Source: Callorhinchus milii (taxonomy: Eukaryota). From it: a stretch of 64,000 nt of DNA. Shown piece by piece: positions 18,284 through 54,849 of the stretch. A model generated the notes under the pieces. That model worked only from the letters and a program-made list of their open reading frames with translations. It ran no database searches and had not been told where the DNA came from. The translations under genes and the position numbers were made by a program. Position 1 is the stretch's first letter, and each line of letters starts with the position of its first letter. Where the stretch lies: assembly GCF_018977255.1 (NCBI RefSeq), contig NW_024704742.1, positions 78,866,001 through 78,930,000 of the forward strand, in the 5' to 3' direction.

Positions 18284-18446
18284 CAGGAGATGTTGAAGGT
18301 TCTTCCACATGACTTGTTATGAAATGACAGCAGCTTTGTTTTTCTTGTGGACTCTGAGGCCTCCAAATGTCGAATGGTATTCCATTCAGCGATATATTAT
18401 GAAGGCATCCCGTGAAATTTCTTGTACTTAACATGGCATGATTCAG
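18284..18446 (-). CDS. Internal exon of laminin alpha-like gene: end of LG domain and linker, LNHAMLSTRNFTGCLHNISLNGIPFDIWRPQSPQEKQSCCHFITSHVEEPSTSP
   Basis: Acceptor ttcttgttcttcag and donor gttagt. 163 nt, phase 0 in and phase 1 out. Canonical LG terminal motif F.GCL..I.LNG. Overlaps ORF-track 18279..18518. Confidence 0.88.
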
Positions 18447-19119
18447 CTGAAGAACAAGAACAGGAATGTATTGATAAAATATCAAATAGCCTTTTAATTT
18501 TGGCTTTGCTGTCACCAATTATCTGCATTCCTCTTGTGAAAATGCTGACTCCTGCTTTGTGAAATTTTCCACTCAACCAACTACTTATTCATCAAATGCA
18601 AGCATAGGCAGTGAGCATTGTGCATGAACTGTTGGGAACATTACATTTTCGACCAATATAATAACGTGATATCAGCTTGGCTGAGTCAGAAGGTTGTGGG
18701 TTCGAGCCCCACATCGGGACTTGGGATCACATAGTCTAAGATGACACTCCAATGCAGTGCTGTGTGGGGGGGGGGGGTGGTGTTACATTGTTGGAGGTGC
18801 CATCATGTTAAATTGAGGTCCCTTCTGCCTGTTCAGGTGGATGTTAAAGATTCCATGACACTGTTCAAAAACTGAAGGGAATTTTTCTCGGTGTCCTAGC
18901 CAACAATCCCGAAAATAAAAATTGGTCATTCAGTTCATGACTATTCGTGGAAATGCTGTGCACAATTGTGCTGCTGTGTTTGCCTAAAATACAGTCACTC
19001 CATTTCACAATAAAGCCTGTGAAGCACTTTGAGAAGTCCTTCTGAAGAGATAATGTGCTATACCAAATCCAATTATTATTATTAGGGTTATTATAATACT
19101 GTCCAGTAACCAGGATTAG

Positions 19120-19215
19120 TAGTTTAGCTCATTTTCTCTGCTCTAGCCCAAGGACACTGAGGCCAATTCTAATGCCGGGTTGGCTTTGTGACTGAGATGA
19201 ACAACCTAAGCAGTA
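19120..19215 (-). mobile_element. Ancient SINE fragment resembling AmnSINE2-type elements
   Basis: Minus strand catctcagtc...agaattggcctcagtgtccttgggctagagcagagaaaatgagcta. Confidence 0.45.
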
Positions 19216-19242
19216 ACAAACCTAATCAAATTAGGTTGGTGT

Positions 19243-19588
19243 GGAATCCTGCAGCTCAGTGGTTAGAGCACTCGGCTCGCAAGCGAGAGACCTGAGTTTG
19301 ATTCCGGGCAGGACAAAATGTTGGGCAGGTTTCCTTACTCCACATGAAGTAGGAACCAGTTGTTAGTCGATTGGTGGATTGCTTTTCCGGAGGTAATAAT
19401 TCCTTAAAAAAAAATCGCTCACTTCAATCCATAACTGTTTGTGGGACACTGCTGTGTGCAATTGGCTGCCGCTTTTCTCCCACAAAATGTACAGTCAATT
19501 CACTTTACAGTATATTCTGTGAAACACTTTGTGACGTCTCGAAGACGTGATAAGGCGCTATATCAAATGAAAGGATTATTATTATTAT
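19243..19588 (+). mobile_element. tRNA SINE, longer (older) subfamily with extra internal segment
   Basis: Same head and tail as the young SINE plus aagtaggaaccagttgttagtcgattggtggattgcttttccgg, which the young copies lack. Confidence 0.85.
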
Positions 19589-20904
19589 TCATTTGACACT
19601 TGGACCCCTGATCAGTATGTACAAATTTGGCACTGAACAATGCACATCAGAGAGGTATCACTCAATCTTTTTTGACAAATGATTGTATTTTCAATTGTTT
19701 TGAATTTTACTTTGAGATGTTTTGATGTGATAAAAGTGTGATCACTCCTATCATCACTTTCAGTTTTTCAATGTCTAGAAAATAAAGTCCATAGGATATG
19801 TCACAGTACTCAATTCTGTGCTTTTGTGTTTGTATGTATCTGTGTGTGTGTCTCTGCTTCTCTAACATGTACCTACCTGCATCGGAGCTTGCTTCTCACA
19901 TTGCTGGTTTAAATTGTGAACCTCATTATAATGGACAGATCTAAAATTTTACTTCTGGATGTGACCCTGAAGCATATAAAGAGGCCTGAAGTTATCCAAG
20001 GTTCAGATAAGCAGATTGGAGTGTGCTTAATACACTTTTCACTCAAATTGCTATTCTAAAACTGACACAAACTGTGTTCAGTGATGCTTTGGCACCATAT
20101 TTCTACAAATTTTATTGAAAGTATAATAACATTTTATCTGACAAAATTGTTATCTTATTGTCTGCTATGATTTACTTTGGTTCAATCAGTTCTTTTGGCA
20201 CTATCAAAGAGTTATGCATAAATTTTAATGTTACATAGATTAGGTTCAGCCTCTGTCCCATTCATGTCCTCAGTGTTCTGGGAAAATGTATTACAGAATA
20301 TTTCAATTCAACTTTTCAGATTTTCTTAAGATTTCTAATGGGCTTTTGACCACCACTTAACAGTCTTCCACTGCTCAGTGGCCAGAGGTTAGTTGCAAAA
20401 GCTTGTCACTGACATATGCATTCAGTGTTTAGGCATTGCAGGTCACTGGTAATGAATGATAAGTAGACAGACTGTGGCTTCTCTTGAGATCAATGCCTGC
20501 AGTTCCTGATTCTGAATTGAAGTGCTCACTCTTCTTTTGTACAGGATATCTCTGGACTAATGGCGGTAGTTGTCATCCACTGAACCCTCGAAGTCTGCTG
20601 GCATTCTAACTGTTATGTCACCTTCCCACACGATTCTCTGTTTCTCTTCTGCGATTTTGCACTTCCACGACCAAACAGCTCATAAATATTCATACATATC
20701 ATGGTTTTCTCTTTCCTAAATGTAAAATAGTGTGGGGGAAACGGCAGGGGAGTGGATCTAAACAGATGCCTCTTACAGAGAGTCAATATGATACAAAGGG
20801 AGTGGAACTAAAGAGATATATCTTACAGAGAGTCGTTACGGATACAATGGACTGAATTGCCTCCTTCTGTGCTGAGAAATAAGCTTATGATTTCTAAGCA
20901 TCCA

Positions 20905-21610
20905 GGAAAGATTGGGAGAGACAGAAAGATTGAGAGACAGGGAGAGGGGGAGAGAGATGGGGGGAAGGGAGAGAGAGGGGGAAGAAAGGGGGATTTAGAG
21001 GGATTGAGAGAGGGGGTGAGAGAGAGAGAGAGAGAGAGAGGATGAGGGTAGGGAGAGGGGAGGAAGGAGGAATGGATTGAGAGAGTGGGAGGGAGAGGGG
21101 CGAGAGAGACTGTGAGAGACGGGGAGAGAAAGAGTGATTGAGAGCGAGGGGGAGAAAGTAATTGAGAGGGGAAGTGAGCAAGAGAGAGATTGAGAGCGAG
21201 CGTGACAGGGGAGAGAGTTGTTAGAGAGAGAGATTGTGAGAGGGAGGAAGAGAGAGAGGAGCGTGTGTCTGTATGTGAGAGTGTGAGTGAGAGGGGAGAG
21301 AGAAAGGGAGAGTGGGAGAGAGAGATTGTGTGAGAGGGGGAGAAGAAGAGTGATTGAGAGAGCAATTGAGAAGAGAGATTGAGAGGGAGTGTGAGAGGGG
21401 AGAGAGAGTTGTAAGAGAGTGTGAGAGGGAGTAAGATAGTGAGGGAGATAGAGAGAGCAGAGAGTGATCTAGAGAGTGTGAGATGGGAGAGAGTGTGTGT
21501 GAGAAAGTGTGCGTGAGAGAGAAGTGTGCGTGAGAGAGAAAAGGGAGAATGATTGAGAGAGAGAGAAAGAGAGAGAGAGAAACAAAAAGAGTGAGAGAGA
21601 GGAAGAAGTG
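20905..21610 (+). repeat. GA-rich low-complexity / degenerate (GA)n microsatellite
   Basis: About 700 nt almost entirely G and A, with recurring gattgagag units. Confidence 0.95.
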
Positions 21611-22442
21611 AGGAGCAAGGACAGACACCGAGTGACGTGATGTGCCATGCAGTTTCCTCACAGAAAACTCCTTTTCCCCAGTGAAAAATCTCTCTATGTC
21701 CTTCAGTCAAATAAATGCATGCTTAAATTAATGATTCCATTAATAAGACGTCCAGCACTTGATGTGACCTGGATCATTAATCGTTACCTTCCTTTCCTAA
21801 GCTTGGTTAAAAGATTAAGTGTGATAGGACTCTTGGCTCTCACTTGTGGATTCCATCCCCTTGTCAGGATGTTGAACCCATAATGTAGCCTGACACTCCA
21901 ATACAGGACTGGGATTTAATTATATTGTGGAAGTCCTTTGTATAAAACATAAAAATCAAGATCTGTCTGCCTGTTAAGGTGGATATTAAATATCCCATGG
22001 TACTACAGTATTTCAAAAGAGTAGGGAGTTTCTCCCAGTGTCCTAGCCCCAAATGAAACTGATCACTTACTTTATGGCTGTTTGTGGGACATTGTTGTGA
22101 GTAAATTGGTTGCTGTGTTAGTCTACATAATACAGTCACTATACTCTATGGTGAATCTTGTAAAGTGCTTTAAGAAGTCCACCTGATATGAAATGCAAGG
22201 ATTGATGCTATAATCATTGGTTGCAGAGAATGATTACCTCAATATCCATTAGTCTAGCTCCAGTAGCTGTTGGGGTGATACATGCCTTTAGGGCACAGTT
22301 GTTTGTAGTGTAACAAACTCTGTATTGTGTTGAACAATGTACATTACTAATTAATAAATGGATATTTCTATACTAGTTTTCAGAACATAGCAATTCATCA
22401 CATACAGACAAGCTCAGCACTTGTCCATATACTGCTCATTAC

Positions 22443-22590
22443 CTTCATATTTCCTATGATTCCTCCTATGTAAACGGTGGAGGTTGGGACCAGCAGGAGG
22501 TATTTGTCTAATGTATTTTGGCTTCCGAATGCTGAATGCGATCTCTGTGACACCATTTCTGTTACTTTGATTGAACCTTCATGTCCAAAC
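22443..22590 (-). CDS. Internal exon of laminin alpha-like gene: LG domain, (R)FGHEGSIKVTEMVSQRSHSAFGSQNTLDKYLLLVPTSTVYIGGIIGNMK
   Basis: Acceptor gaaattgcag and donor gtaatg. 148 nt, phase 2 in and phase 0 out. RFG..GS..V.EM and YIGG motifs typical of laminin alpha LG1. Confidence 0.9.
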
Positions 22591-23626
22591 CTGCAATTTC
22601 AATCATAATGATATGAGAATAGCTTCAGACTTAAAATAGTCAAAAATAATATATGGAGTTAAATAACAGTTTTTTTTTTAACCCCGCATGTTGATGAATT
22701 TCTTCTAAGGTTTTTATGGTGATACTGTAGATTTTGTTTTAAGTCTGCAGAAAAAAGCTTTTGGAATTTCACTAAGATTTTAAGATGAGTTGTGTTAATT
22801 TACTCTCCAAATTCCATCAATGACTCTACAAATGCATGGAATTGTCATTTTGGTTTTGATAATCTAAGCAAGGTGATGGGCCTCCGCATGTGTCAGACAC
22901 CTGACTGACCCTAAAAAAATGATGGAATTTTGGGCCCAAACTCGTGCTGAATCTGTTGCAATAGACTGACTAACCACTAGGGGCAGTGACTCACTGCTTC
23001 TCCCCAAGAGTGACTCCAATTTTTACTCTGATATGCAGCCATCCAGGGCTTTACAACTTTCAACAACAAAATTACATTTGTATAGCGCCTTTCACGTCAG
23101 GAGGACGTCCCAAAGAGCAGGGGAAGGACTCAAGTATTTTTTTCTCTCTTGCCCATAGAGTGTTAAGTAAACGATTGCATTGTTTTAATACTTATTTTAG
23201 CATGTGGAGACCCTGACCTCAATTCGGGACCTCAAAGAGGTGTATAATATTTTAAAGGGGATTGACAAAGTGAAACCAGAACAATACTCTAGGATGCAAT
23301 AAGTCAGCAGAACAAGAGGACACAAAGTTAATGTGGCAAAGGGCAGTTTCGGGACAGATACCATGATGTTTTTTTTATTTAGACAGTAATTAATAACTGG
23401 AACACATTGCCAGGAAAACTAAATATATTTAAATTTAGAGTAAATAATCTCACCATTCTATGAACAATGAGAAGTATTTCTCACAAGATGTATTGGACAG
23501 TCTAGAGCTGGACGTGTACACGTCATTGTACATTGCGCAAATGGCATTGCGCATTCCTGCTTTTAAGGAGACTGTCGATTATGAGTTGTCTTGGTGACTT
23601 CATGCTTATTCTGAGAGATACTTTAC

Positions 23627-23759
23627 CTGTTAGCATTGATCTGATACCACTTCTCTTGCTGAAGTCTAACCAGGCTGATTACTGTGACGACAAGATTAGT
23701 CATTCCAAATCTGAAGTGCAGCAACCCATCGATCAGCTCCAGTCCCAAGAAACCTTTCA
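23627..23759 (-). CDS. Internal exon of laminin alpha-like gene: LG domain, (V)KGFLGLELIDGLLHFRFGMTNLVVTVISLVRLQQEKWYQINAN(R)
   Basis: Acceptor aatatcttcag and donor gtaaag. 133 nt, phase 1 in and phase 2 out. LG motifs FL.LEL.DG.L.F and KWY.I...R. Confidence 0.9.
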
Positions 23760-24237
23760 CTGAAGATATTATACAAATAACAATGTGTTCACATTTAATG
23801 CATTGCTAGAAAAAGTACACAGACTCATTTGTTTCTTAATAAACTCCGAGGGCTGCAAGCATTTGCAATGGGATTTTTACCATGTGAGCTATTGTGGACT
23901 GGAAGGAATGGCGGAAGCTGAAATAATGTTTCCTTGCTTCCAGTATCAATGCCCTTGATTTCCTATTAATTTACACGGAATTGCATAAAATGATAGTGCA
24001 CAAAAACAGGCTATTGTGGCCCAACCAGTCTTTGCTGGTGTTTGTACAGGTTACCAAAAAGCAACCCTATTATCTAAAAAAATCATAATTTGTTTAAGTC
24101 TTATTAGACATTGTAATGGTATCATGACTTTTTGGTCACCCTGTATATCCACTTGAGTCCCATTGCCCTCCCTATAACCCCTATTCTCTTCTTCCTTAAG
24201 TTTGCAACAAGATTCCTCTAAAATATATTGATGCTCT

Positions 24238-24697
24238 CTTCCTGGAGGGACGCATCCTGCTTACCTAATTCCAGAAAGTGTCAGGAGCAGATGCTTGGGG
24301 ACCCCAGAGTGTGTGTTGGGAAACTGCAAGAGCCTAACCAGCTAAAATTGTATAGCTTGCCATTGCTATTGCTGTCTGGCAAACTTTCCATCTGCTTGTC
24401 CAGCTAGGGCCAACCTACTCATTAGGGCTTTGATTTGCAGGCTTAACAGGATCTGAGTGGGATGACTCCTTGCCCCGAGTGACTGCTCTGCCCTTCCAGG
24501 TTCTGCCGATGAGCCCGGCTGGCTGTGCTGTTGTCAGCAGCGCTCTGGAAGACTACGGACCTGCTTGGCTCAGGAACTGGACTATCGAGACTGCAACAGA
24601 GAGCTGGCTCGATTCTGACATTCCGTTGCCAGGCACGTCACCTTGGAGCCAATTCAGCTCCAAGAAGACTCCACTTACCTCACCCCAAGGAGCATAG
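24238..24697 (+). repeat. Unclassified interspersed repeat, longest of five copies
   Basis: Shares cttggggaccccagagtgtg...aaccagctaaaa...tagcttgccattg with 17156-17342(+), 30505-30730(-), 37281-37502(-) and 52201-52345(+). Confidence 0.8.
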
Positions 24698-27600
24698 TCA
24701 CTAGTCGGTCATTTGACATTCGACAAGTGTGGGTTTGAGCCCTTACTAGGTCTATGTCACAAGCTTGACCTGCATTGGGACCTTGTTGTCCTTAAAGAGG
24801 GATGAGCATGACCAGAGTCCTTAACCCTGAAGTAAATAAATAGACAAGTTAAAACATCAGGAGGGTGACAGTGCCAGCAGAAAGAAGACATCATGAGAAG
24901 GAGAGAATAGAATATAAAATATTCTGAACGACAATGTGAGGGCTTTTCAAACGCCCTGACAAGTAGATTGCTGCTGCTGATTCTGCAGTGAGGTATCATT
25001 ACTCAGACTCCTAGTTCATAGTTTCTGCTGTATTTCATTTGAAAAAGGACCGAATTGCCAAATGAAAGGGCCAAGCTCATGATTTCCTGAAGTCTCCCAA
25101 GTCTTGAGGTGCCAATGCAACCCAATATAAAAAAAGGCTGTGACAGTATCAGTGACAAAAATGAGTTCACAATGTCAGAATCATCAGATTGTATTGCAAT
25201 TGTATAGCACACTCTCCCATGCTTCATTTTATCCAATCTGAGTCTGAAAAGTTTTGATGATGAGCACAAGGGAGAATGCATTACAGTGTGAGGCTCTTTG
25301 TTCCCATGGGATCTATTGAGATCCTCACCACCTATCAGTAGCTCTATATTGCAATGGTTCACAGTAAATTCAGTGCTTTAGTTATCGTATTTAACATTGA
25401 TAATTCTGGAACGTTGCAATTTCCACTTGATAACTGAAGACGAGTGTGAGCCTATCCCTGACTCCTCTGGCAGGGTTAAGAATGGAATTGGGGATCACTT
25501 AAACAGTTTTGCAACTACTTTCAACTAACCCCTTTTCTACATGTCCACATTCCACATGGTTTCAACTTGGGGTGGGTGTAAAAATACAACTGAAGCCTCA
25601 CTTAGAAAAAATTAGGAACTGATTTTCTAGACCATACATCTGATTTTGCAACTAATTTCAACTAACCTCCTTTCTACACTTCCCTCATTGCAGATGGTCT
25701 CAATTGATCACGCGCTTTGAAAGAAAATCCCAAGATATTGATACATTTGAACTTCCACTATAATGTGTATCCATGAGATTGGACTAAGTTTTAATTGTAC
25801 ATAATGCAGGATGCAGGCCTAATCAATAGGTACTGAGCACTTGGAACAAGCAGATACAGTTGTACCCTAGCAAGACTTTGAATACAAAGTTGGTTAACTT
25901 GTCTGCTGTCTCAAACCATAAGTGTATCAAGTTGCTTTAAGTCATTTTGACTCTGACTTAATGTAAGACTTTGAGGTGTTGTCAATTGAATGTTTGTGAC
26001 CAATAAATGGCTCAATTGAACTGTTTTTGAGTCGTCATTATTCCCTCGTTAATTCAAACGGGATACTGTTTTTGTCTAGTCACTGGAATGTTAGGTACCA
26101 CCTCCGTGACACTTTACTGCAGGATTGTGACACGAATCTGGACCAAAGATTGTGGCACCACCATGATACGTGGCATTTTAGTGCCACTTCATAGGATACC
26201 AGCTCTACTCAATCTGAAATCTTTGGACTCACTTCAGGTAGACAAAGAGAAATTCTAGACACAGTTGTTAGCCACTGTATCAGTAAACATTCTCTTCGCA
26301 CTCAGCAAAGCTACCGATAAAGCAACAATAACTTGCATATATATATTAGTTTCGCCCACAAAATATACAGTCAGCTCACTTTACAGTGTAGTCTGTGAAG
26401 CGCTTTGAGACGTCTTGAAGATGTGATAAGGTGCTTTATAAAATGCAGATATTATTATTACTATTCACTTGGGGTAATGTCTCAGAGTGCTAAAGCAGAA
26501 GCTGAAGCCCAAGAGAAGGTATCTTATAGCCACTGCAGGGGTGTAAGCTGCCTTCTCTTGGGTTTCACCTTTAAGCAATCCAAGATGGTAAGCTAAGCCT
26601 CCTTCTATGCATCTTTCCAAATTCTTATTCAATATGAATTTCCAGCGAACTCTAGGAATTCATACTGGATAAGAATTTGAAAGATGCAGAGAAAGAATTA
26701 TTTAGCATATTTAAATCAATAAAGTGAACGTCCATTCCTTCGGCCACACCTGCAATCGAAATAACTTCTCAATAAAACTAGTACACACAATGGTACAGTG
26801 GAAGAGAGCTTAATTGGGCACAGCAATGGGTCACAAACAGTCGTAGTTTGAATGCCCAAATTCTTTTTTTTTGAAGGGATTATTACACCAGGAAAAAACA
26901 ATCCACTTTACTGTATATTCTGTGAAGTGCTTTGAGACGTCTTGAAGATGTGATAAGGTGCTATATGAAATGCAGGTATTATTATTATTAGTAGTATTAT
27001 TATTCATTTGTAGTAATGTCTCAGAGTGCTAAAGCTAATTGGGGAATAACAAGGGAGTTCCTACTTACTGCTAGGTGAACAGAGGCGTGTGGAATGAGGA
27101 AAGTTGCTCAACGTTTTGCTCTGTCCGGAATCAAACCCGGGTCCTCTCGCATGAGAGGTGAGTGCTCTAACCATTGAGATACATGACTTCACCTGTATCA
27201 GGAACTTACCTAAATTAGATCTCAGATACAAAATATACAGTCACTAACTTTATAGTAAATCCGGTGACACACTTTGAAATATCCTCCTGATAGAAAGTCG
27301 CTCTATCAAATTATTATTATTATTATTATCTCTCCAGTTTATGCTACTGGTTCAGTCTTATAAACACAAACTTCTTATCCAGACAAGATAATTATCCAGA
27401 GATCCAGATAATTTCTTATCTAGTCTTATCCAAATTTCTTATCCGCACATCTTAAAAGAGAGCCTTGACTTCACAGCGCAACTTTACTCTGACACAGGAG
27501 CCTGCTATGGATAAGTAGACACATGCAGATGCACAGCAGTCTGCTAAACAAGTGATCAACAAAGTCTCTTTCAATCCTAAACAGCAAGTCCTGAGCATTG

Positions 27601-28178
27601 TTACATTTGATGTGCATGTGGGTGGTTCTGCCTAAAAGCACTTTAAAAATCCAAATGCCATGTGAATTCATTTGTTTGCTTTGCCTGATGACATTTACAG
27701 GCATCTCTGAACATGTTCTTTGATTTATTTGACTCATTAAGTGACATTAGTGCAGTACTAAGTGGAATTAATTTTGTGTTTGTACTAACAGTTAACTTTT
27801 GTTGCTTAAAAATGTTCTAAAGGGTGCAGCTAATGGCTGTAATTTTGCATTAGTGTCACAAGTTTGAAGAATATATGAGCTAAATAAAGTTATTCAAATA
27901 TAAATGTAGCTTAAGTGGATTCACTCAACACTCCCTAGTGAACTAGTGACCCCCTCCCACCCATTCCCTGAATACATTTACTGCCATTATTACACAGTTC
28001 AGAACTTTACAGCTGAGGGCTTAACTTGGCTCAAAATCTAAAATACTGCCCACAGAAATTAAGTTTTCTCCCTCAGTTTTTCAACATTTTATGTCAATCG
28101 ATTTCTGCTTAATAAATGTAAACCCAAAGCAATGCTCTTGGACACACTCAGATGGCAGAACAAGAGTGCACAGATTTT

Positions 28179-28443
28179 AATAATAATAATAATAATAATC
28201 CTTGCATTTGATATAGCGCTTTTCACGTCGGGAGGACGTCCCAAAGCGCTTCACAGAACACACTGTAAAGTGAATTGACTGTATATTTGTGGGCGAACGC
28301 GGCAGCCAATTGCGCACATCAATGTCCCACAAACAGTCGTAGATTGAAAATGACCAATTTAATTATTGTTTTTGGTTTTTTGGAGGGATTATTATTAGGC
28401 GTGTGGAGTAAGGAAACTTGCCCAAGGTTTCGCCCTGCCTGGA
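28179..28443 (-). mobile_element. Young tRNA SINE, 5'-truncated
   Basis: Reverse complement of the consensus from the (att)n tail to ccaggcagggcgaaacc. Confidence 0.9.
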
Positions 28444-28444
28444 A

Positions 28445-28675
28445 AGTTTAAAGTTGCAACAGGCAATTTCAGGCCTGACAGCGGGAAGTATTTCTTTACT
28501 AAGAGGGTAATTAATGAGTGGAACAAATTACCAGGAAGAGGAGTTGAGGCCGGAATACTTGACTCATTGAACAAAAGCAACTTTGTGCTGTGATGGGAGG
28601 ATGATACGGTAGATATTCTGCAAAATGAGATCAAATAGGCCAAAAGGTCTTCTTCATCCAAACCAATTTTGTGAT
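28445..28675 (+). mobile_element. CR1 LINE 3' fragment
   Basis: Translates YFFTKRVINEWNKLP, followed by a CR1-like 3' UTR. Confidence 0.75.
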
Positions 28676-29169
28676 ATTCAAAAGAGGGTTGGCTTACCCT
28701 GGGTAGAGTGCACATCATACAATACTGCACCAAACAAAGAAGAAACTCACCGCTAATTTGGTTTTCACCCAGTGCTTACCTCAGATTTGTGTCTAAAACA
28801 CAATTATTTATATTGGATTTTCCAATATTTTTGCCAACTCCCAAGAACTTTTCATACACCCAACCACTTTGCAGAGTGGAGTTCCTACGCATTGCGTCTG
28901 ATTGACAGAGGGAGTAACCATCTGTGAAACAGAATCCTTATTAAGGAATCCAATTAAATAACTCTCTGGGCTTTAGACTATAATCTCAGAGTTTGAAGTG
29001 TAATTTATCAATTCCCTACTTTATGGAAGTTCAAAGAAAGATCCCAAGAGATTTTCTGGTTTCACCCCATTAAATGGTTTCCTACGTCCAAGTATAACCA
29101 GAGTATCCTTCATCCCACCTCACTTGGGGCCCGAAGGACAGTGTCCAAGCAAAAGTTCACATCTACCAC

Positions 29170-30385
29170 AAACAAACAACAACTATACGAAGTTGTATAG
29201 TGGCTTTCATGTTGGGAGGACATCCCAAGGCGCTGGACAATCAGTGTTTCGGACACAAGCTGGGGGTCGGGGGGCAGGGGGGAAGGAGGGTGATTGAAGG
29301 TACAGTTGAATAGGAAGGTTTTGGGTCTTGAAGGAGGCAAGGAAAGGGGAGAGGTGAATTGATTGCGGGATGGAGTTCCAGAGAGTGGGAGCAGAGTGGC
29401 TGAAGGCCTGTCCGCCAATGGTGGAGCGGGTGAAGCAGGGGATGTGAAGCTCTCATCCAGGACCTGATGTCTGACAAACATTCTGTCAGGACAGCAGTGG
29501 TCCTGGAGTCAAGGGTAGAGGTACAGTTGTGTGTCTACCGCATACATGTGATCCCGTGTCTGTGGATGATGTCACCTTGAGGGAGCATATAGATATTGAA
29601 GAGGAGGGGACCAAGGACAAAGCCCCGAGGAATGCCGGACGAGATGGTGCGGGGGCTAGAGGAGAAGCTGTTTGTGGAGATGATGTGTGAGAGGTACGAT
29701 CTGAACCGTCATGTACAGAACCATGAAGGTTGAGGTGACAGGAGAGGCAGTGAATGAGGATAGAGTGGTCGATGGTGTCAAAGGCAGCAGAGAGGTCAAG
29801 GAGGACGAGGAGGCAGAGGGAGCCCTGGTAGCAGATGGATAAAATGTCATTTGTCACTTTGACCAGGGCTCTTTCTGTGCTGTGGGTGGCACAGAAACCC
29901 GATTGAAGGGGTTTGTGAAGGGAATGGTGGGAGAGGAAGGGGCGAAGCTGGGAAGCAACAACTCATTCTAGAACCTTGGAAAGGAAAGGGAGGTTGGCGA
30001 TGGGGTGGTAATTTGAGAGCAGGGATGGGTCCAGGGAGGGTTTTTAAAAGATAGGAGTGATGACGGCCGTTTTTAAAGGGGTGGAAATGATGCCAGTCGA
30101 CAGGGAGAGCTTTATGATGTCTGCGAGTAAAAGGGCAAGGAGGTGGAGCTGGGAGGTAAGGAGAGGGTTAGGGATTGGGTCGATGGAGCAGGTTGTCTAT
30201 TTCATGTGGGTTATAGTGATGGTGAGAGTGGAGGAGGCCACAGGTTCGAAGGTGTGGAGGGTGGAATGGGTAGGGACTGGTGTGTGAGGGGGAGATGGGG
30301 AGGGGGTAGTAGACCGAAGGGCAGAGGCAGCTGAGCGGATCCCCTCGATTTTGGTTTTGACGATGTCCAGCATCGCCTCGCAGTT
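29170..30385 (-). mobile_element. Decayed, internally deleted L2 copy
   Basis: ORF 29486..29857 contains TNDIL...[16 protein letters not shown]. 3' tail near 29170. Confidence 0.88.
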
Positions 30386-30821
30386 GGCATTGGAGGAGAG
30401 GATGGGGGAGGTGTGACCTCTGATACTGAAATAACAATTGTACTGAATGCCCTCGTATCTTCCATCTAATACCTTGAGAAACCCCTCTTAAGCTACGCAG
30501 AAACCCACAGTGATGACAGCAGTCAGCCTGACTCATCAGCAGGAACTGAAGGGATAGACCAGTCACTGGGAAAGCGATCCTTTCTACTTGAGCTTGCTGG
30601 TGTATGCAATGGTAACCTGCCTGGTTTTAGCTGGTTAAACTCTAGCAGTACTTAATGTCCACTTTGGGGTTCCCAAGCTTTGCCTCTTGCAAACCTGTGC
30701 CTACATTTTCCAGCATTAGCTTAACAGGTGAGAGAGTGTGCACTTCATTCTAGAGAAAGGGAAAAATCCATGCAGAACTATCAGAAGTTTGGTATATATT
30801 CTTAAGTATGGTGATGGGTTT

Positions 30822-32832: not shown

Positions 32833-33007
32833 CTTGATCAGCCTGGTTTGTGTCAGACAAGTAGAAGACAAGACCATCCGCGATGTTGGTCGATATCATC
32901 AGTGTGAGAGTGTTGAACAGAAACGGTGTGGCTGTGGGAAACATCCTGGGCAATTCTGTAACGGTTGCTCCATCAAAACGTACCGGCCCAATTAACGTCC
33001 TGGAAAC
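32833..33007 (-). CDS. Internal exon of laminin alpha-like gene: start of laminin G domain, VSRTLIGPVRFDGATVTELPRMFPTATPFLFNTLTLMISTNIADGLVFYLSDTNQADQ
   Basis: Acceptor gttttgctgtgatggcag and donor gtggtc. 175 nt, phase 0 in and phase 1 out. LG motifs V.FDG, NTLTL, T...DGLVFYL. Confidence 0.88.
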
Positions 33008-33677
33008 CTGCCATCACAGCAAAACACAGAGAGTTAGAGGAACAGAATATTAATGGGGAGTGTGAAGAACACATTGTGTTCATCCAAAGTCGACTTTGCT
33101 ATCAAAACCGCCATAAAATTGGTAGCAATTTTCAATAGATTTATGCGGATCATCTCATATTAATAGTCAATTTCATGGGTAGTGCACAAGTGTAAATGGC
33201 TCCCATTAATGACGGCGGGTGAGTTGTGATGAAATACGAAGCTTACTGGGGACACAAAATTGGCTGATTATAATTCTAATACCAATAGTAAAATAAATCT
33301 TTTTTTTTATTTGAATGAAGAGCATCCATACCGAGTTAAGGAGGAATACCGAGCAATTATTATTATTATAATTCGCGAAACTGAATTCTTTTAACAATTT
33401 GCCATAGATTTAAGAAACAGCTTACCCACCTCTTATCAAATGCACTGGCCATTGAATATCCAACTTATTCCATGAATAGCTCGCAATAGTAATTTTAATC
33501 CATAAGACTGTTTTAAAATTACGATTCGCCCACTTCAAGACTCAAGACTGTTGATTTAGGTGGGTGATTGCACGATTGCTAGCAGTTCACAGATATACAC
33601 AACAGTTCCCTGAACTAACAGGTTTTCAATGAAAGTCTCACATTGGGACTGTTGTGATCCCACATCATAACTGAAAT

Positions 33678-38921: not shown

Positions 38922-41900
38922 AGGGCTCACATCAGAGCCCACTATGGTCCTGTTGGGTTCGATGCCCCAATCTGCGGGATAATGCCATCCACCTGACCGC
39001 TCGCTCCCGGTCCCCGCGTGCGCACTATGGCTGCCGCTTTGACCCGAGCCCCCTCACCCCCTCCCTCCCTCCCCCCTCCTCTCTCCCCCCAAACCCTCCC
39101 CCCTCTCCATCTCTCCCGCTCTCTCCTCCTCTCTCTCCGTCCCTCTCGTCTTCTATCCCCACTTGACCCTCCCACAACCTCCCTCTGTTCCAGTCTGGGA
39201 ATCCTCCGCCGGGCTCACCGCGGCACTCGGCGTTGGCTGTCCAGCAGCAGCCACACCGACTGCCCCATTCCCCACCACTCTCGCCAGCCACCCCGGACAC
39301 AGACCCGGGGAGTCAACCTCTCCTCCCTCATCCCCATCTCCCCCACCCCTGCCTCACAACCTGGACCCCCCTCCCCTCCCACACACCCTTCTGTCAACCG
39401 CTCCCTCCACATCGGACTGCAAAATGTCCGCTCCCTCTGCAACAAGGCCCTGGTCATCAACGATCTCATCCTTGATGAGAACGTTGATATCATGGCCTTG
39501 ACAGAAACGTGGCTCACCCCAGGCGACACCTTCCCCCTCACGGAGGCCACGCCACCCGGCTACACCTCCCACCACATCCCCCGCCCCAACCGCCGTGGCG
39601 GTGGTGTTGCCCTTATCTCAAGGACACCACTTGCCCTATCCCCCTACTCCTCTGGCTCTTTCCCCTCCTTCGAGCACCTCACCCTCTCCCACCCCTCATT
39701 CCTCTCCCTTAAAATCCTCCTCCTCTACCGGCCCCCTAAAACCTCTCCCACCTTCATCTCTGACATTTCAACACTCCTCACATCTCTTTGCCTCTCCTCT
39801 GATCGCCTCATCATCCTGGGCGACTTTAACCTACACTTCACCCCCTCCTGCTCCATCTCCACAGACTTCTCTTCCCTGCTCTCCTCACTCAACCTTTCCC
39901 TACACATAAACTCCCCCACTCACAGTCACGGCCACCCACTCGATTTGGTGATCACCCGGGGCCTCAGTGTCTCGGATGTCACTATTACCGACAAGGCCAT
40001 CTCCGACCACTACTTCATCTCCTTCACCACCTCCACCCCCCTCCCCACCTCCACCAGACCCACCACCATCTTCTACCGCCCTTGGAAGAAGTTACCCCCA
40101 CAATCCCTAACCGATGCCTTGGAGTCCTCTGAACTCCTCTCCCTCTGGCCTTCAACCCTCACCGACCCCTCTTCTCCTCTCTCCCTCCTCCACAATATCC
40201 TCTCCTCCACACTCGATACTCTTGCCCCCATCACTTCCCGCACTGTCTCCTACTCCCGCTCCTCCCCCTGGTACACCACCCACCTCCGCTCACTGAAATG
40301 CCAGGTGCGGGCTGCTGAGCGCACCTTTGTCAAATCCGGCTTAACGGTCCACCGACAAATCTGGCTGGACCTCCTCAAAATTTACCGCTCCACTCTAGCC
40401 TCGGCCAAGTCGTCCTTCTACTCCAGGATAATCCTGGAGGCGAAGAACAACCCCAGGCTACTGTTTTCCACCACATCCCGACTCCTCCGTCCCCCCCGCC
40501 ACCCCGCGCAGGTCATCTCCTCCAACCTTCACTGCGAGGAGATGCTGGATTTCCTTGAATCCAAGATCAAGGGAATCCGCTCCGCGGTCACTTCCCCTCC
40601 AACTTCCACCCACCACCCACCCCTTCCCTCCCACACTCCGACTCCTACCCATCCTCCCCTACACACCTTCGTACCCGTTTCCCCACCCTCTGTCACTGAA
40701 CTCATCCTATCCCTAAAACCAACCACCTGCTCCCTTGACCCCATCCCCACTCCACTCCTTATCTCCCAGCTCCATTTTCTTGCCCCACACATCACTGACA
40801 TCATAAACCTGTCCCTCTCCTCTGGCTCTGTCCCCATTCCATTAAAAACTGCCATCATCACGCCCACCCTGAAAAAACCCTCCCTTGATGCGTCGCAGCT
40901 ATCAAGCTACCGGCCCATCTCCAACCTCCCCTTTCTCTCCAAGGTCTTGGAAAGAGTTGTCGCCTCCCAACTGCGCTCTTTCCTCTCCACCCATTCTCTT
41001 TTTGAACCCCTTCAGTCAGGTTTCCGTGCTGCTCATAGCACAGAAACTGCCCTGGTCAAGGTCACCAATGATATCCTGACCATCTGTGACCAGGGCTCCC
41101 TCTGTCTCCTCGTCCTCCTCGACCTATCGGCAGCATTCGATACGGTCGACCACGCTATCCTACTCCACCGCTTGTCCTCCCACCTCAACCTTCAAGGCAC
41201 TGTCCTTGAATGGTTTAGCTCTTACCTTTCCCACCGTCTTCACTTCGTCTCAACGAATGGCTTCTCCTCCACCCCCCGTACTGTCTCATGTGGTGTCCCT
41301 CAGGGCTCTGTCCTCGGTCCCCTCCTCTTCACCCTCTATATGCTCCCCCTCGGTGACATCATCCGCAAACATGGGGTTAACTTCCACATGTATGCGGATG
41401 ACACCCAACTCTACCTTTCCTCCTCTACTCTCAACTCCACGACCACCGATGTCCTGACAGCCTGCCTGTCCGACATCGAGTCCTGGACGAGAGACAACTT
41501 TCTTCAGCTCAACGTGCGAAAAACCGAGGCCCTCCTGATTGGCTCACGTCAGCGCCTCCGCACCTCAGGCGCTGACACCATCAGCATCCAAGGCTGCACT
41601 CTCCACCTCTCAAAGCCAGTCAGGAACCTCGGCGTTTTGTTCGACCCTGAGCTGTCCTTTCTCCCTCACATCCGCACCACAACTGGCACCGCCTTCCATC
41701 ACCTCCGGAATATCGCCAGATTACGGCACTACCTCACCCCTCACGCTGCTGAAACCCTGGTTCACGCCTTTGTCACCTCAAGGCTGGACTATGGGAACTC
41801 TCTCCTCGCCGGCCTTCCCGGCACCTCCCTCCACAAGCTGCAGGTCATTCAGAACTCTGCAGCTCGTGTACTGTCCCGCACCAGGCTTCGGGACCACATC

Positions 41901-42438
41901 ACTCCCACCCTCGCTCGCCTCCACTGGCTCCCCATCCCCCAGAGGATTGATTTCAAGATCCTCATCCTCACCTACAAGGCCATTCACGGCCTTGCTCCCT
42001 CCTACCTCTCCAACCTACTATCCCCCTACCTACCTGCCCGTACCCTCCGTTCCTCTGGCTCCGGTCTGCTCCACGTCCCCCGCCCCAACCGCCCTACTAT
42101 CGGTGGTCGGGCCTTCAGCCTCTCAGCCCCCAGGCTCTGGAACTCCATCCCCCAGTGCCTTCGCCTTGCTTCCTCCCTTTCCTCCTTCAAGGCCGGTCTC
42201 AAAACCTTTCTCTTTGACCGTGCCTTCAGCTCCCCTCTCGACTCTCTTCCTCCTCCTCGCTCCCTCCCTTCCCTCCCCTCACCCTGACCATTTCCCCCCT
42301 CCTCTCTCCCTCCCTTCCCTCCCCTCACCCTGACCATTTCCCCCCTGCTCGGGTCATGACCCAACTGTGCAGCGCCTTGGGACGTCCTCCTGACGTGAAA
42401 GGCGCTCTATAAATGGAATCTTGTTGTTGTTGTTGTTG
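38922..42438 (+). mobile_element. Young L2 LINE copy (short 5' leader, ORF2, 3' UTR, (TTG)n tail), antisense in an intron of the laminin-like gene
   Basis: Intact ORF2. The 3' end gcgccttgggacgtcctcctgacgtgaaaggcgctctataaatg plus (ttg)n is shared with other L2 copies in the window. Confidence 0.92.
39018..42287 (+). CDS. Intact L2-clade LINE ORF2 (AP endonuclease plus reverse transcriptase), 1089 codons from GTG or 1086 from the ATG at 39027
   Basis: APE motifs LQNVRSL, ALTETWL, GGGVAL, LYRPP, LGDFN, SDH. RT motifs [56 protein letters not shown]2-type C-terminus LHWLP..RI.FK and LWNSIP. No stops or frameshifts. Confidence 0.96.
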
Positions 42439-49494: not shown

Positions 49495-49775
49495 GGATAT
49501 TGCAGCGATTGAGAGGAGAGGGGATGGAGGGACTGGACTATGAGGAGCAATTAGATAAACTGGGCATGTTCACACTGGAGAAGAATAGGTTGAGGGGTGA
49601 TATGATTATGGTCTTTAAGATTCTGAAGGGAATAGACAACATAGACCATGACAATCTTGTAACATAGTAGAACCAGAGAACACGGCCTACGACTGAAGGG
49701 GGTAAACCCAGAACAAATCTGCAGAAACACTACTTCAGTGAGAGAGTAGCAAGCTTATGGAACAGGCTCCCTATG
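49495..49775 (+). mobile_element. CR1 fragment
   Basis: LDYEEQLDKLGMFTLEKNRLRGDMI...FSERVASLWNRLP. Confidence 0.8.
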
Positions 49776-50010
49776 ATGGTTACAACGAAGGCCACAGAGA
49801 GGCTTTGTGGTGGTTGTGATCAGGAAAGGGTCACACACCTGGCAAGGGTGAAGCTGACACATTTGGCTGCTTTATTACCTTAATCCTAATCAGCAGTGGG
49901 AATGATCCATTTTTTGCATGACCTAACCCTGTGACTCATTCATTCACTGTATGATGGAACATCTCTGTGATATTAATTTTCCTCCCATCCACATGTAACC
50001 ATGTGGTTAC

Positions 50011-52163
50011 AGAGGAGAATGTAAAGTTAAACAGAGAAAAGTACAAAATGGAGGTCAAATAGCTAGGACATATAATAACACAGAAAGGGTTAAAAATGGA
50101 TCCAAAGAAGGTTGAAGCAATAACAAAAATGCCAGCACCTCAGGACGAATGGAAATGGTAAACTGGCTAGCGCAGTTTATCTCGAATGTGACAGAATTCA
50201 TGGGACCTATAAAGGAATTGGTCAAAGCAGATAGTGAATTTTCCTGGGGGAAAAACAGCAGATGGCATTCAATAACATGAAAGAAGCTATTACAAAAACC
50301 CCTGTATTAAAGTTTTATGACAAAAGATACAGTAAAGATATCAGTAGATGCAAGAAAACAGGATTAGGGCAGGTTTATGGGTGGCCTTAATATAAAAAGA
50401 GGAAGTATTTGCTTAAGCATCATGAGCGGGTATTGTCAAAAACAGAACAAAACTATGCACAAATAGAAAAAGAGTGTCTCGAGTTACTTTTTGTGTGTGA
50501 GAGATTCAAAAGATAATAAAGAATGATCACAAGCCATTAGACACATTTTTTAAAAAAGGCCTCAACAAAACACACCTGAGGTTACAAAGAATGTGTAGAA
50601 ATATGAAATAGGATTGAAATATAAACAAGGAGAAAGTTTCTATGTAGGAGATACACTGAGCAGAGCAATGAGTCAAAAAGGAAATGAAGAAGTTAAAAGA
50701 CTAGAAAAGGAAATAGTAATGACCAAGAGATAGCAAAAGCAACAAAACAAGAAAAAGATCTAAAAGAAGCCACAAGTAGAGATGTAGTAATTGCAACCAT
50801 CAAGAACATATTACAAACTGGATGGCCTGAAAACAAGAAAGATTCTCCAGGGTAAGTTAGACCATAGTGGGAACACAGACAGGAGTTCTTTCAATAAAAA
50901 GGAAAAAAGTATAGAGGGGAGAGAATAGAAATACCAAAGAAATTAAGAGAGACATTTATGAAGAAGATACATGAGGGATACTGGGGAGTGGAAAGAGCCA
51001 AGTGAAGTGCTAGAGAAATAGTATTCTGGCCCAGCATAAATAAACAAGTAGAAGACTACATGGAGAAATGTGACATAAGGAGAATCATGAGCCAATCATG
51101 CAGCTTTAGAAACCATAGCAAGCTTGGCCAAAAGTAGGAACAGACTTGTTTTATGACAAAGAAAAGAACTATCTAGTAGTTGTGGATCACATGTCCTGTT
51201 ATTTTGAATTACCTGACATGATGGTAGAAATGGAGATTTTTGCGTGGTATGGAATACCAGAAATAGTTATAAGCAACAACCGACCACAATTTGTAAATGG
51301 TCAATATAGGAAATTTTTAAAGGTTTGGGGAATTGGACATAAAGCACAGAACAGCATCCGTGGGATATCCACGGAGCAACGGGATGGTGGAGAGTACAGT
51401 GGAAACAATGAAGAAAACGTTGAGGAAAGCAGAAAACGCAAAAGAAAATGAACATTTAGCAATTTTAATGTACCAAAACACACCAAAAGAGACAAATGAA
51501 AGATCACCGGCAAAAATTTTAATGTCAAGACGATTAAGGGACAGATTAATATGCGGAGAAAACAGATTAAACCGCAATAGCAAAGAAAGAATAGAAATCC
51601 AAATCAAAAGGGAGAAGTAAAAGAGAAAAGCTTTGAAATAAAGGAAACGGTATGGTTCAGAAAGAAGAGTATCAAAGCAGAGGGGTGGATCAAAGAGAAA
51701 ATAGTGAAACCGGATAAACAACTAAGATCATATTGGATAAACCAGATAAACAATCAAGCTCAATAGAGGAAACCGGATTCAGAAGAACATTGTGGGAGAT
51801 GAGAAAAAGAGCTACGGAGGACAAGGAAGATCAACAACAAGAGATGACCAAAGATGGACCAGAGGAAAGAGAGACAAAGTGGACAAGATTGGGAAGAGAG
51901 ATTAAACGACCAGCAAGATTAATAGAATGTTAAAGAAAAACATAAAAAAGGAAGATGTTGGATATTACTTTAAGAGTAAATTGACAATTAACAAAAGGGC
52001 CAATAAGAAGAAGGCCAGGAAGTACAAAAGGCCATTGGGAGTGGGACGAAATGTGTGATTTAGAGTGGTGGATTATTTAGAATTTGGATTGACAAATAAA
52101 GAAGCTACTAACACACCCTTGATTTGGATTGAGTTATAACGCACCATGCATCCCACCTACACA
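50011..52163 (+). mobile_element. Decayed Ty3/Gypsy LTR retrotransposon: pol (RT end, RNase H, integrase), polypurine tract and 3' LTR
   Basis: Frame-broken motifs LGHIITQKGLKMDPKKVEAI, QNYAQIEKECL, DHKPL, DTLSRA, IHEG..GVE...FWPSI, KVGTDLF, YGIPEIVISNN.PQF, YPRSNGMVE. Purine tract aaaaaaggaaga directly before TGTTG at 51956. LTR has AATAAA and ends ..CA at about 52161-52163. Confidence 0.9.
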
Positions 52164-52462
52164 TGGAAATTTCCACGTATTGGAGTGAATTATGCACACC
52201 ATCCCTGGAGGGACACATCCTGTTTTCCTAAATCCAGAGAAAATTAGGCTCAAATTGTCTTGGGGCCTCCAGAGTGTGCGTTGGAATACTGCTGGATTTC
52301 AACCAACTAAAACGGCATAGCTAGTCATTGACAAACAGTTTCAGAGGTCTGCCCACACAAGCAGAACTCATTGATCTTAGCAAATCATTGATCTGAGGTT
52401 AGACAAAACTTCAAAGGACTAATTTGGTTGGAGGTGTGAATAAACACTACCATTGTCTTTGA

Positions 52463-53450
52463 TACAACAACAACAAATTACATTTGCTACAGTCAGGGAT
52501 CTGCATCTGAGCTGGTGGTTGAGATCAGAAGGGGTGGAGGGCGGGGAGGGTAGATGTAAGATGATGACTGAAGGCATGGTCAAAGAGATAGGTCTTGAAG
52601 TAGGCAAGGGAGGGGATGAGGCAGAGGGACTGTGGGATGGAGTTCCAGAGGTTGGGGGTAGAAAGGCTGAAGGCATGCCCACCAATAGTGGGGTGGGCAG
52701 GGTGGGGGACATAAAGCAGGCCAGAGCCCACTGAGTGGAAGGTGCAGGCAGGTTGGTAGGAGGTTAGGAGGTCACAGAGATAAGGGGGAACAAGACTGTG
52801 GAGGGCTTTGAAGGTGAAGACCAGGATCTTGAACTGTATCCTCTGAGTGATGAGGAGCCAGTGGACCTGGGCAAGATAGGGGTGATAGGGTTGCAGAGCC
52901 TGGTGCAGGAGAGGACATGGGCTGCTGAGTTCTGGATGATTTGCAGCCTGTGGAGGGAGGAGTTGGGGAGGCCGACAAGCAGGGAGTTTGCTTAGTGGAG
53001 CCTGGATGTGATGAATGCCTGGATGAGGGTCTCAGTGGCCTGCGGAAAGTTGCGGAGCTGGGCAATGTTGTGGAAGTGCGGAAAGGTGGAGCTGGTCATG
53101 GCACGGTTGTGAGGGATGCAGGAAAGTTAAAGTTCGAACATGACGCAGAGGTTTCCATATTGGCTCTATGAGATGTAGAATGTGTCCATGAAGGGAGATG
53201 CTGTCAGCGCCCAAGGTATGGAGATGCTGATGGGAGCCAAGCAGGAAGGCCTCGGTCTTGTTGACATTCAACTGAAGAATGTTAGCTCTCATCCAATACT
53301 TGATGTCTGACAGGCAGTCTGTGAGGACAGTAATGGTCCTGGAATCAAGTGTGGAGAAGTAGATTTGGGTGTCATCCGCATACATGTGGAAGTTGACCCC
53401 ATGTCTACAGATGATGTCACCAAGACGGAGCAAGTATATGTTGAAAAATG
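52463..53450 (-). mobile_element. 5'-truncated decayed L2
   Basis: ORF 53032..53460 contains [15 protein letters not shown] 52525..52731 contains LWNSIP. (caa)n tail at about 52465. Confidence 0.9.
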
Positions 53451-54706
53451 AGACAATCATAAGGCCTTAGCTAATTTGCACCTGAGTTTGATCTGTTTGG
53501 ATAAAGTACTCTACTAGATACATTATTGAATGCAAGTGTTTTTTTTGCCCACCCACTCTCTTCCCCCCCAACTCACACAATCATTCACAGTAATTTAATA
53601 GTTGTTTTTTTTATGAAAAATATTATCATGCCCAATCTCAAGAGAACATAATTCCAATTGCAGCAAAAAATATTATTTTGAGCTTCCTACCTGAGACTGC
53701 TATAGTAGTACTGAATCAGGCTCACTAAGAATGTATCTCTACCTCAGCTCCACAGGACAATCCATAATGAGATTTATAATATCTCCTAAGAGGCATTGAG
53801 AACAATGTTCAGGTGAACTTCTCAGACTGTATACTAATTTCAATTGCTAAGTATCGTAAAGATGCAGCTACATAACCTAAGACTGTTAGGCAAGGCTGAC
53901 AGCTAGTTATCAATCAACATCGACTGAATCCTAGGTTGTTTTATTGGATATTCATTAAAGGGCAACTCCTTGTAAACCATATAGACATTTTACAATGTTT
54001 ATGTATGTTGATACTGGAATAAAGCACCAGAATAAATATCCCATTACTAGCTACCACCTGCTGGATTACAGTAATTTTATTATAATTGAAAATAAAAAGA
54101 AACTGGTAAGGTGTGGTAGATAAAACTGCTTCCTGAATAACTAGTTGCAATTGTTGTAAAGACATTTGCCTACAAAACACAGTTATTCCACTTTGCAGTA
54201 ATTCTGTGAAGTGCTTTGAGACATTTTCCCACCTTGAAATTAGGCTGTATCAAATGTAAGGGTTATTCTTATCTTAATTTTGTAAACATCTATCAGATCC
54301 GATGAAATCTACCTTCCCTTCATCATTACTTGGATGTACTCATCACTAGATTAGAGGATAATGTGTGCATCAATTCCAATAGCCATGTGCAAAACAGGTT
54401 ACGATGGCACTGAGTCTTTGAGCAATGCCTTCCTTGTAACTGCTAAAATTTTCTTTGAGCTGATCCTTTGACTGGATATGTAACACAATTGGTTTTAATT
54501 TACCAGTTGTGCAAACCATGTTCAATCAGATGTTTGTAGAGTGAATTTCCGGTGATAAATATATAATCAACAATCAATGGGAAATGGTTGCAAAATCACC
54601 TGAAATCCTTTTTCAGAAGTTGTTACTGCTTTACACATGCTTAACCCAAATTGCAAATTAGATACCAAAGTTACTTAAGCATTAGACGAGTTCAGGATGT
54701 GCTCAC

Positions 54707-54849
54707 CTGTTCAACAGTTTCTAGTGATGATAAGAAAGAAGCAATCTTTGAATTCAGCGTGGTTCTCATAAGACGGATTTTACCAGATGACTCTGTAGCC
54801 TGAGACAAGGAGATCTTGGATTTGCTGAGTTCAGATGTTAAATGATCCA
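54707..54849 (-). CDS. Internal exon of laminin alpha-like gene: end of coiled-coil region, (x)DHLTSELSKSKISLSQATESSGKIRLMRTTLNSKIASFLSSLETVEQ
   Basis: Minus-strand acceptor ttttttcacag and donor gtgagc. 143 nt, phase 1 in and phase 0 out, open. Heptad-like helical peptide that joins in frame to the exon at 33007. Confidence 0.75.

Follow-up and report, generated by a model that had tools for sequence, protein, structure and literature searches.

Vertebrate laminin alpha chains trace to two ancestral types. Chains of a different laminin type, called beta/gamma-like laminins and with a short arm that carries both an LF and an L4 domain, were reportedly described by Fahey and Degnan in 2012. 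According to the available part of PMC3516229, this type is absent from ecdysozoans, urochordates and vertebrates, and netrin-G falls inside its clade. In laminins the LN domain polymerises, the coiled coil joins three chains, the LG1-3 domains together with the coil end bind integrins, and LG4 contains a calcium site that mediates its binding to matriglycan (PMC11260871, available sections). Five laminin alpha clades were described in ten teleosts (PMC9504374, available sections). Here, we discuss a stretch of 64,000 nucleotides (nt) of the 992-Mb genome of Callorhinchus milii (G000:C1:78,866,001-78,930,000, i.e., contig NW_024704742.1 of assembly GCF_018977255.1), referred to as the window, which harbors five exons of a gene that is transcribed, spliced and likely to encode a secreted chain of the laminin alpha type, from a lineage beyond these two.

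Echinoderms have five to eight laminin genes, the types of which are not given in the available part of PMC10381214, and Nematostella has five alpha-named genes, one of them NvLamA-like, which are given without sequences in the supplement of PMC12549020. The available parts of PMC4582122 and PMC12749355 hold nothing on extra alpha types. No publication on a sixth vertebrate alpha chain or on the clade described below was found; Fahey and Degnan (2012) and an echinoderm adhesome paper may already mention invertebrate members. The relatives of the gene discussed below are three invertebrate proteins known from automatic annotation, with no study of them found, from the starfish Acanthaster planci ("laminin subunit alpha-like", XP_022095830.1, here P0033), the ribbon worm Lineus longissimus ("laminin subunit alpha-2-like", XP_064620727.1, P0003) and the jellyfish Sanderia malayensis (EP00794_P009566, P0034).

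Window exons and the LG1-5 end

A first-pass annotation, made from the letters of the window alone, had proposed five minus-strand GT-AG exons with chaining phases that give a stop-free peptide of about 254 amino acids (aa), and the splice ends, phases, intron sizes and open frame are all borne out. Exon 1 (54707..54849 in window numbering, which is used for exon positions in the window; phase 1/0) encodes 47 aa from the closing section of the long-arm coiled coil, exon 2 (32833..33007, phase 0/1) the end of the coil and the start of LG1, exon 3 (23627..23759, phase 1/2) the core strands of LG1, exon 4 (22443..22590, phase 2/0) its middle, and exon 5 (18284..18446, phase 0/1) its end, with a pair of adjacent cysteines (CC) typical of the family, and the LG1-LG2 linker. 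All five, on the minus strand, have an AG acceptor and a GT donor, and the phases chain across introns of 21,699, 9,073, 1,036 and 3,996 nt. The 762 nt of the joined exons translate into 253 aa with no stop, compared to 20 and 11 stops in the alternative frames, and all six sequence motifs quoted from the peptide are located in it. Aligned to the starfish protein, the window peptide yields a best domain of 89 bits, where the top of 30 shuffles reaches 5.2 bits. Taken singly, exon 1 aligns weakly to P0033 residues ~2024-2069, with a score equalled by 6 of 200 shuffles; exon 2 has one match in the genome and a weak match in the PDB (laminin alpha-1 of 5mc9, E 0.07), and yielded no homologue among 25 candidates when used as the sole query; exon 3 matches Pfam Laminin_G_1 at E 0.0026, which is under the cut-off.

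Splicing at the proposed boundaries was found in run X1, which is RNA by the tool's guess, as none of the listed data sets with this sequence is registered as RNA, and represents a single run of a single study, and where three informative contigs (depth 6-8) lie over the window exons. Contig 2 joins 22443-22588 directly to 23625-23760, which is the exon 4/exon 3 junction. Contig 1 covers 18282-18422 and carries 426 extra letters off the stretch, with the departure at the exon 5 donor, while a contig that covers 32876-33010 has 100 letters off the stretch and departs at the exon 2 acceptor. A splice from exon 1 to exon 2 would agree with contig 7. The small overhangs in X1 match the first or last bases of neighboring exons, which means that exon 5 is spliced onward rather than read through into the stops past its donor. 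Run X2 showed no exon-covering contig among those listed, an absence that carries no evidential weight. The five window exons are confirmed as real and spliced.

The next exon lies ~4.4 kb below window position 1, in line with the earlier statement that the window holds no further exon: exon 5 reads on into G000:C1:78861637, where an LG2 exon lies that is present again at 78825382. The 100 kb retrieved from below the window hold fourteen further exons, and the frame stays open across LG2-LG5 as far as position 78,789,518, where it meets a stop. In the resulting C-terminal model (19 exons, 1035 aa) all phases chain up to this natural stop, and the exon model together with the alignment places five tandem LG domains directly after a coiled coil; Pfam likewise lists five LG domains each in P0033, P0034 and P0003. 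In phmmer the model scores 356 bits with the starfish protein and 325 bits with that of the ribbon worm, compared to 152 bits with the top canonical chain. The identity over LG1-5 is 20-27% to the three invertebrate relatives, with 27% to starfish vs 18-20% to vertebrate LAMA chains.

Other LG proteins (usherin, agrin, perlecan, neurexin) were considered and set aside, because FN3, EGF or Ig domains would be expected next to the LG domains in these, while a coil with five LG domains is seen instead. In a Foldseek search with the multi-LG model, neurexin came first, but with a template-modelling (TM) score of 0.16 and 15% identity. An AlphaFold2 model of the ribbon-worm protein, not of the fish chain (predicted local distance difference test score 70.5, predicted TM score 0.41), has a long helix followed by five beta-rich domains and matches alpha2 LG4-5 with a TM score of 0.80 by target length; this model confirms the domain type only.

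Canonical laminins, relatives and phylogeny

The Laminin_II profile has 41 matches in the genome, of which five are strong, at C2:115.84, C3:30.54, C3:35.08, C2:117.97 and C18:14.95 Mb; the genome profile search gave no Laminin_I or Laminin_II match at the window locus. The loci at C2:115.84 and C3:30.54 Mb show LN and two L4 domains and have MAM matches 0.2-0.4 Mb away, as would be expected in the LAMA1-PTPRM and LAMA2-PTPRK neighborhoods. At C3:35.1 Mb, LE and LG matches are found with no LN match, as in LAMA4. The window gene is a sixth laminin alpha-type locus.

An exhaustive phmmer search with the 86-aa LG2a exon, over 1.84 billion representatives, returned seven matches at E <=0.001, one of which is laminin-named (Lineus longissimus XP_064620727), and no close vertebrate protein, the organism's own included. 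Because the own protein is also absent, the lack of vertebrate matches may reflect annotation rather than loss. Two further searches used P0003 as the query, each scoring ~8,000 word-sharing candidates. Among proteins of similar length, 25 others were found at 20-27% identity, mostly LAMA4; among longer proteins there were 33, led by P0033 (449 bits), P0034 (238 bits) and bee wing blister (202 bits), with vertebrate chains at 149 bits or less. Taken together, the LG2a and P0003 searches found the three non-vertebrate members and no other vertebrate member. The ESM Atlas gave generic LG and LE clusters only.

Phylogenetic trees, all unrooted, were built with 25, 13 and 11 rows from ~65 laminin-type proteins; full LAMA2, beta and gamma chains are not among the rows, and the LAMA2 row is partial and taken from this genome. 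In the 13-row LG1-5 tree (LG+G4), the query forms one group with the starfish, ribbon-worm and jellyfish proteins, with a support of 100/100. The same four are grouped in a quick 25-row tree under a mixture model (Shimodaira-Hasegawa-like approximate likelihood ratio test, SH-aLRT, 100), and in an 11-row tree from which the jellyfish was omitted, the query remains with starfish and ribbon worm at a support of 100. The alpha3/4/5 chains and LanA form a group of their own; that of alpha1/2 with wing blister is weaker (81/85 with 13 rows; not resolved when the jellyfish is left out). In approximately unbiased (AU) tests on LG1-5, a position of the query inside vertebrate LAMA1/2 was rejected at p 9e-6, one inside LAMA3/4/5 at p 4e-14 and, under the mixture model, one with alpha1/2 and wing blister at p 8e-10. 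The LN tree unites the query with starfish and jellyfish at 99/99, with weak deep branches. That the identity is higher to starfish than to the vertebrate chains is not expected from long-branch attraction.

It is very likely, as judged from these sequences, that the gene represents an old third alpha lineage, apart from both alpha1/2 (with wing blister) and alpha3/4/5 (with LanA). The first-pass view that it may not be a LAMA1-5 orthologue is upheld by the five canonical loci found elsewhere and by the LG1-5 and LN trees and AU tests, which place the gene outside the canonical LAMA orthogroups. The idea of an extra alpha-type paralogue retained in the fish stands in part: an old lineage was kept, but not a vertebrate or lineage-specific LAMA duplicate.

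The oddities of the peptide that had been pointed out, i.e., a CC pair, the missing WDLG strand and a start as GPVRFDG, are indeed present, but they are common to the invertebrate "alpha-like" proteins. The CC pair after LG1 is found in fish, starfish and ribbon worm; the lack of the WDLG strand and the P-x-x-F-x-G start are common to the family, and this start also resembles that of alpha3/4/5. In addition, the family is recognized in LG4 by an LRI(N/H)DF strand followed by R-D/E-Y-x-x-N. Two aspartate columns of LG4 in the LAMA1 and LAMA2-like rows, which we take to be the LAMA1/2 calcium site, hold other residues in the query and all three relatives. This replacement in four family members makes dystroglycan binding at that site unlikely, and alpha-dystroglycan would thus probably not be bound by LG4; the earlier suggestion of a different receptor binding thereby gains some support from the sequence. 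The fish LG1 is without the extra cysteines found in LG1 of starfish and ribbon worm, which may leave one of the two CC cysteines without a partner, and the fish LG4 has two cysteines that are absent from the relatives.

A link to netrin-G was rejected. The LN exons that ranked first, located at C16:9.94 Mb and at C20:8.59 Mb, proved on reading to be of the netrin-1 type, and the LN tree (17 rows, with partial netrin rows and weak deep branches) does not join the query to netrin-G-like rows. Two other LN loci, at C5:25.80 Mb (with an identical copy on C67) and C12:15.91 Mb, hold netrin-4-like exons that group together, which suggests a second netrin-4-type gene in this genome. LE or LN matches were also seen on small contigs (G000:C624:43,389-48,028, minus strand; C1077:14,645; C1136:10,897), to which no placed laminin or netrin gene was assigned.

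The short arm, the coil and the gap to the window

Pieces of LN, LE, LF, L4, coil and MAM are found 0.73-0.88 Mb upstream of the window exons, on the same strand and in order, with the LE and L4 matches at 79.743-79.779 Mb (minus strand) and the LE exons collinear with P0033 and P0034. These two proteins are best for four or five of the seven upstream pieces fetched, and canonical chains are best for the L4 piece and one LE piece. With the starfish N-terminus as the query, LN exons were located up to 79.801 Mb. The N-terminal model (11 exons, 609 aa, no stop) comprises a hydrophobic start, called as a signal peptide by eye, LN, LE1-5 and the start of LF, which begins after ~4.5 LE. Its best-domain score is 442 with P0033 and 315 with P0034, with others at 138 or below; for LN alone the scores are 129, 61 and at most 42, respectively. 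The LN domain is 40% identical to that of starfish and is divergent, at ~40 bits to the alpha1 LN and with no Pfam Laminin_N match on C1. Because the LN loop PLE-x-GE of canonical alpha chains is only partly retained in the fish, polymerisation is uncertain. One Laminin_B match is found here, vs two domains each at C2:115.86-115.88 Mb and C3:30.57-30.63 Mb. The LE counts between domains are borrowed from the starfish protein, the exons of the fish gene having been fetched in part.

Past the last LE, the coil opens with an exon at 79,734,687. It is then interrupted by a MAM domain at 79,688,843 (Pfam, 29.5 bits; its further exons recognized by eye), near the position of a proline- and glycine-rich break in the starfish coil, after which three more coil exons extend to 79,654,832. 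One of the coil exons, at 79,663.8 kb, aligns clearly to P0034 1776-1838, which is the expected position, a score that none of 200 shuffles equalled. All exons of the two joined models (30/30) are open and have intact splice sites. The earlier reading of a coil end followed by LG1 as laminin alpha architecture is supported, by LG1-5 downstream and, if one transcript spans the gap to the window, by LN, LE, LF, L4 and coil upstream.

The invertebrate trio has the same domain order as the fish gene and common LG4 motifs; all three fall in its clade in the LG trees, while the LN tree includes only starfish and jellyfish because the Lineus model is without LN. Pfam lists no MAM in these proteins, such that MAM in the coil is a feature of the fish. 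The order LN-LE-LF-LE-L4-LE-coil-LG1-5 is found also in alpha3B, alpha5 and insect LanA, and the numbers of cysteines from LF to L4 and after L4 are close (41 and 57 in alpha5; 39 and 55 in P0033). However, alpha3/5-type chains form a separate clade, have 93-96 cysteines (~11 LE) before the first globular insert, compared to about 44 in P0033, and an LF region that is long, while it is much shorter in P0033. The alpha1 and alpha2 chains have 44 cysteines before the first insert, a shared count, and give the best canonical LG1-5 scores, but their first insert is L4 and they have two L4 domains, whereas the fish gene has LF first and one L4; the lack of a cysteine ahead of LG1 is a further difference. 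Beta/gamma-like laminins, compared here by description, are an old type like the fish gene, which in contrast ends in five LG domains and has an LN domain that does not fall with netrin-G.

Coil exons were seen before MAM, after MAM and in the window, with 36.6 kb of the first coil half and 613 kb of the gap between the upstream part and the window outside view. The end of the last upstream coil exon found and the start of window exon 1 are both in phase 1, which is compatible with a direct splice, and the protein positions of the two parts do not overlap: counting on from the 79,663.8-kb exon, the upstream part extends to about P0034 1888, while the first residues of window exon 1 correspond to about 1963. 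Filtering the 109 kb above exon 1 for coiled-coil exons yielded no convincing candidate, though exon 1 itself was recovered; the jellyfish coil as a genome query gave one, irrelevant, match, and over 78.921-79.030 Mb neither a profile of three sequences nor filters for composition gave anything convincing, nor did reading through the open frames of 79.643-79.651 Mb. As both ends are orthologous to the same single invertebrate proteins, in order and without overlap, it is quite likely that one transcript spans the gap, and only in that case do LN and the short arm belong to the window exons. The start annotated for Lineus P0003 falls close to the point in the coil that the upstream fish exons reach (G000:C1:79,654,832), which may be due to chance, a conserved very large intron or a second promoter.

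Alternative readings of the locus

A number of observations weigh against a single gene of a third lineage. The gap from 79,654,832 to window exon 1 is 733,982 nt, is spanned by no read and was examined over ~121 kb, and ~65-75 residues of the invertebrate coils are unaccounted for. Most coil exons cannot be placed by score, the 79,663.8-kb exon being the sole clear one, and the best local matches of the first coil exon fall elsewhere in the coil. The Pfam profiles Laminin_N, Laminin_I and Laminin_II miss the fish gene, and likewise P0033 and P0034. In BLASTP with LG1-5, the jellyfish protein (20% identity) scores 161 bits vs 164 for bee wing blister; with the window peptide alone, Bombina LAMA1 reaches 63 bits vs 62 for Lineus, and scored over the whole protein it is ahead of starfish (133 vs 104). 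In the trees the query sits on a long branch, and the RNA support comes from one run at low depth, the nature of which is guessed.

The alternative that survives best, though we consider it unlikely, is a split gene of the same ancient lineage, in which a unit with LN, MAM and coil and a unit with a short coil and LG1-5 are transcribed apart to give an LG-less chain and a small LG1-5 protein. Such an arrangement would account for a gap of 734 kb where other introns seen are <23 kb, for the empty 109 kb above window exon 1, and for the start of Lineus P0003 near P0034 residue 1885, close to the end of the upstream part in the fish. On the other hand, the halves lie on one strand, ordered, non-overlapping and phase-compatible; starfish and jellyfish hold both in one protein; window exon 1 is internal, with a good acceptor and no signal peptide; and the Lineus start may be an annotation cut.

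The assembly itself is probably disturbed in this region. Window positions 1..30544 are the upper copy of a ~36-kb tandem duplication (whole region G000:C1:78,824,894-78,896,544), the copies of which are 99.1-99.4% identical and separated by a gap of 30 N. The duplicated segment contains exons 3-5 and the first LG2 exon, just below the window, which are identical over 704 nt; exon 2 is outside the segment. Runs X3 and X4, which cover introns, carry the second-copy letter at 22/31 variant rows used (31 at 18047-26803, of 40 shown among 59). Contig depth inside vs outside the segment is 6.7-11.3 vs 11.4 in X3 and 6.2-11.3 vs 9.2 in X4, where depth is not a copy-number measure and contigs drop variants, and one X3 contig crosses the duplication boundary. 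The similar depth and the second-copy letters point to two haplotypes assembled in series, which is the probable nature of the duplication; a genuine tandem exon duplication was judged unlikely. Identical pairs of LG or MAM exons are seen also at C1:138.03/138.04 Mb and C2:124.97/125.00 Mb, and the assembly may hold more false duplications of this kind.

Given this probable haplotype duplication beside the 30-N gap in the same gene, the gene could be compact and its halves separated by mis-scaffolding or an insertion, i.e., the giant intron would not be real, with otherwise the same biology as in the single-gene reading; we regard such an error as improbable, as no run of >=10 N is present in the 100 kb above the window. 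About as improbable is a decaying gene, transcribed but without a working chain, due to a real duplication of exons 3-6 or to lesions in exons outside view. Splicing through a tandem copy would set exon 6, which ends in phase 0, against exon 3, which starts in phase 1, and so cause a frameshift; moreover, the searches revealed no other member in vertebrates and the branch is long, but all 30 exons are open with intact splice sites and the duplication looks like two haplotypes. Finally, a fast-evolving vertebrate LAMA1/2 duplicate drawn to invertebrate long branches, which would fit the LAMA1-like parts of LG1 (NTL-x-L, RFG) and the long query branch, can be dismissed almost entirely, because AU tests reject it under both models, LN and LG independently give the same grouping, identity to starfish is 27% (LG) and 40% (LN) vs 18-20% (LG) to vertebrate LAMA, and the short arm has LF and one L4 instead of two L4 domains.

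The predicted chain and its implications

The reading that we prefer, a single gene of the third alpha lineage, builds on the exons, their open frames, the domain order, the orthology of both ends and the splicing of LG1 in one run. The gene would extend on the minus strand of G000:C1 from ~79,801,195 to ~78,789,518 (about 1.01 Mb) and encode, in order, a signal peptide, a divergent LN, ~4.5 LE, LF, ~4.5 LE, L4, ~7 LE, a coil interrupted by MAM, and LG1-5. The short arm would thus be of a mixed kind, sharing with alpha1/2 the ~4.5 LE that precede the first insert and with alpha3/5 the succession of LF and L4. By analogy with known laminins, the chain would be secreted, its ~600-residue coil would combine with those of one beta and one gamma chain to form a heterotrimer, LN would be offered to the laminin polymer, and anchoring would occur through the LG domains, while MAM would form a knob on the long arm of the trimer that provides a new surface for adhesion or dimerisation. 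A working, trimer-forming chain is reasonably likely from this analysis. The full scenario, in which one ~1-Mb gene encodes ~3,200 residues of a lineage that predates the cnidarian-bilaterian split, was lost in insects and most vertebrates, was kept in this cartilaginous fish, gained MAM there and would form unusual trimers without dystroglycan anchoring at LG4, is in our view as probable as its negation.

Inside the 21.7-kb intron, at 38997-42354 on the plus strand, a GC-rich, stop-free frame of 1,096 codons is found, which is probably a young retrotransposon of the long interspersed nuclear element type; an inverted copy of its 3' 1.4 kb, with 97.6% identity, lies at G000:C1:78,823,526-78,824,920. 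A GA-rich microsatellite tract occupies 20906-21612, and an AT-rich minisatellite with units of 22/45 nt is located at 57913-58188.

If the preferred reading is correct, three alpha types reached the ancestor of jawed vertebrates, one of which was later lost, apparently in most lines. The locus also illustrates that a 1-Mb matrix gene can escape annotation, and because no protein close to the LG2 exon is found among the representatives, other sharks, rays, lampreys and amphioxus may hold unannotated copies. The fish would then offer a vertebrate setting in which to study the role of the third chain, the tolerance of the coil to a whole MAM domain, and anchoring without the dystroglycan site of LG4.

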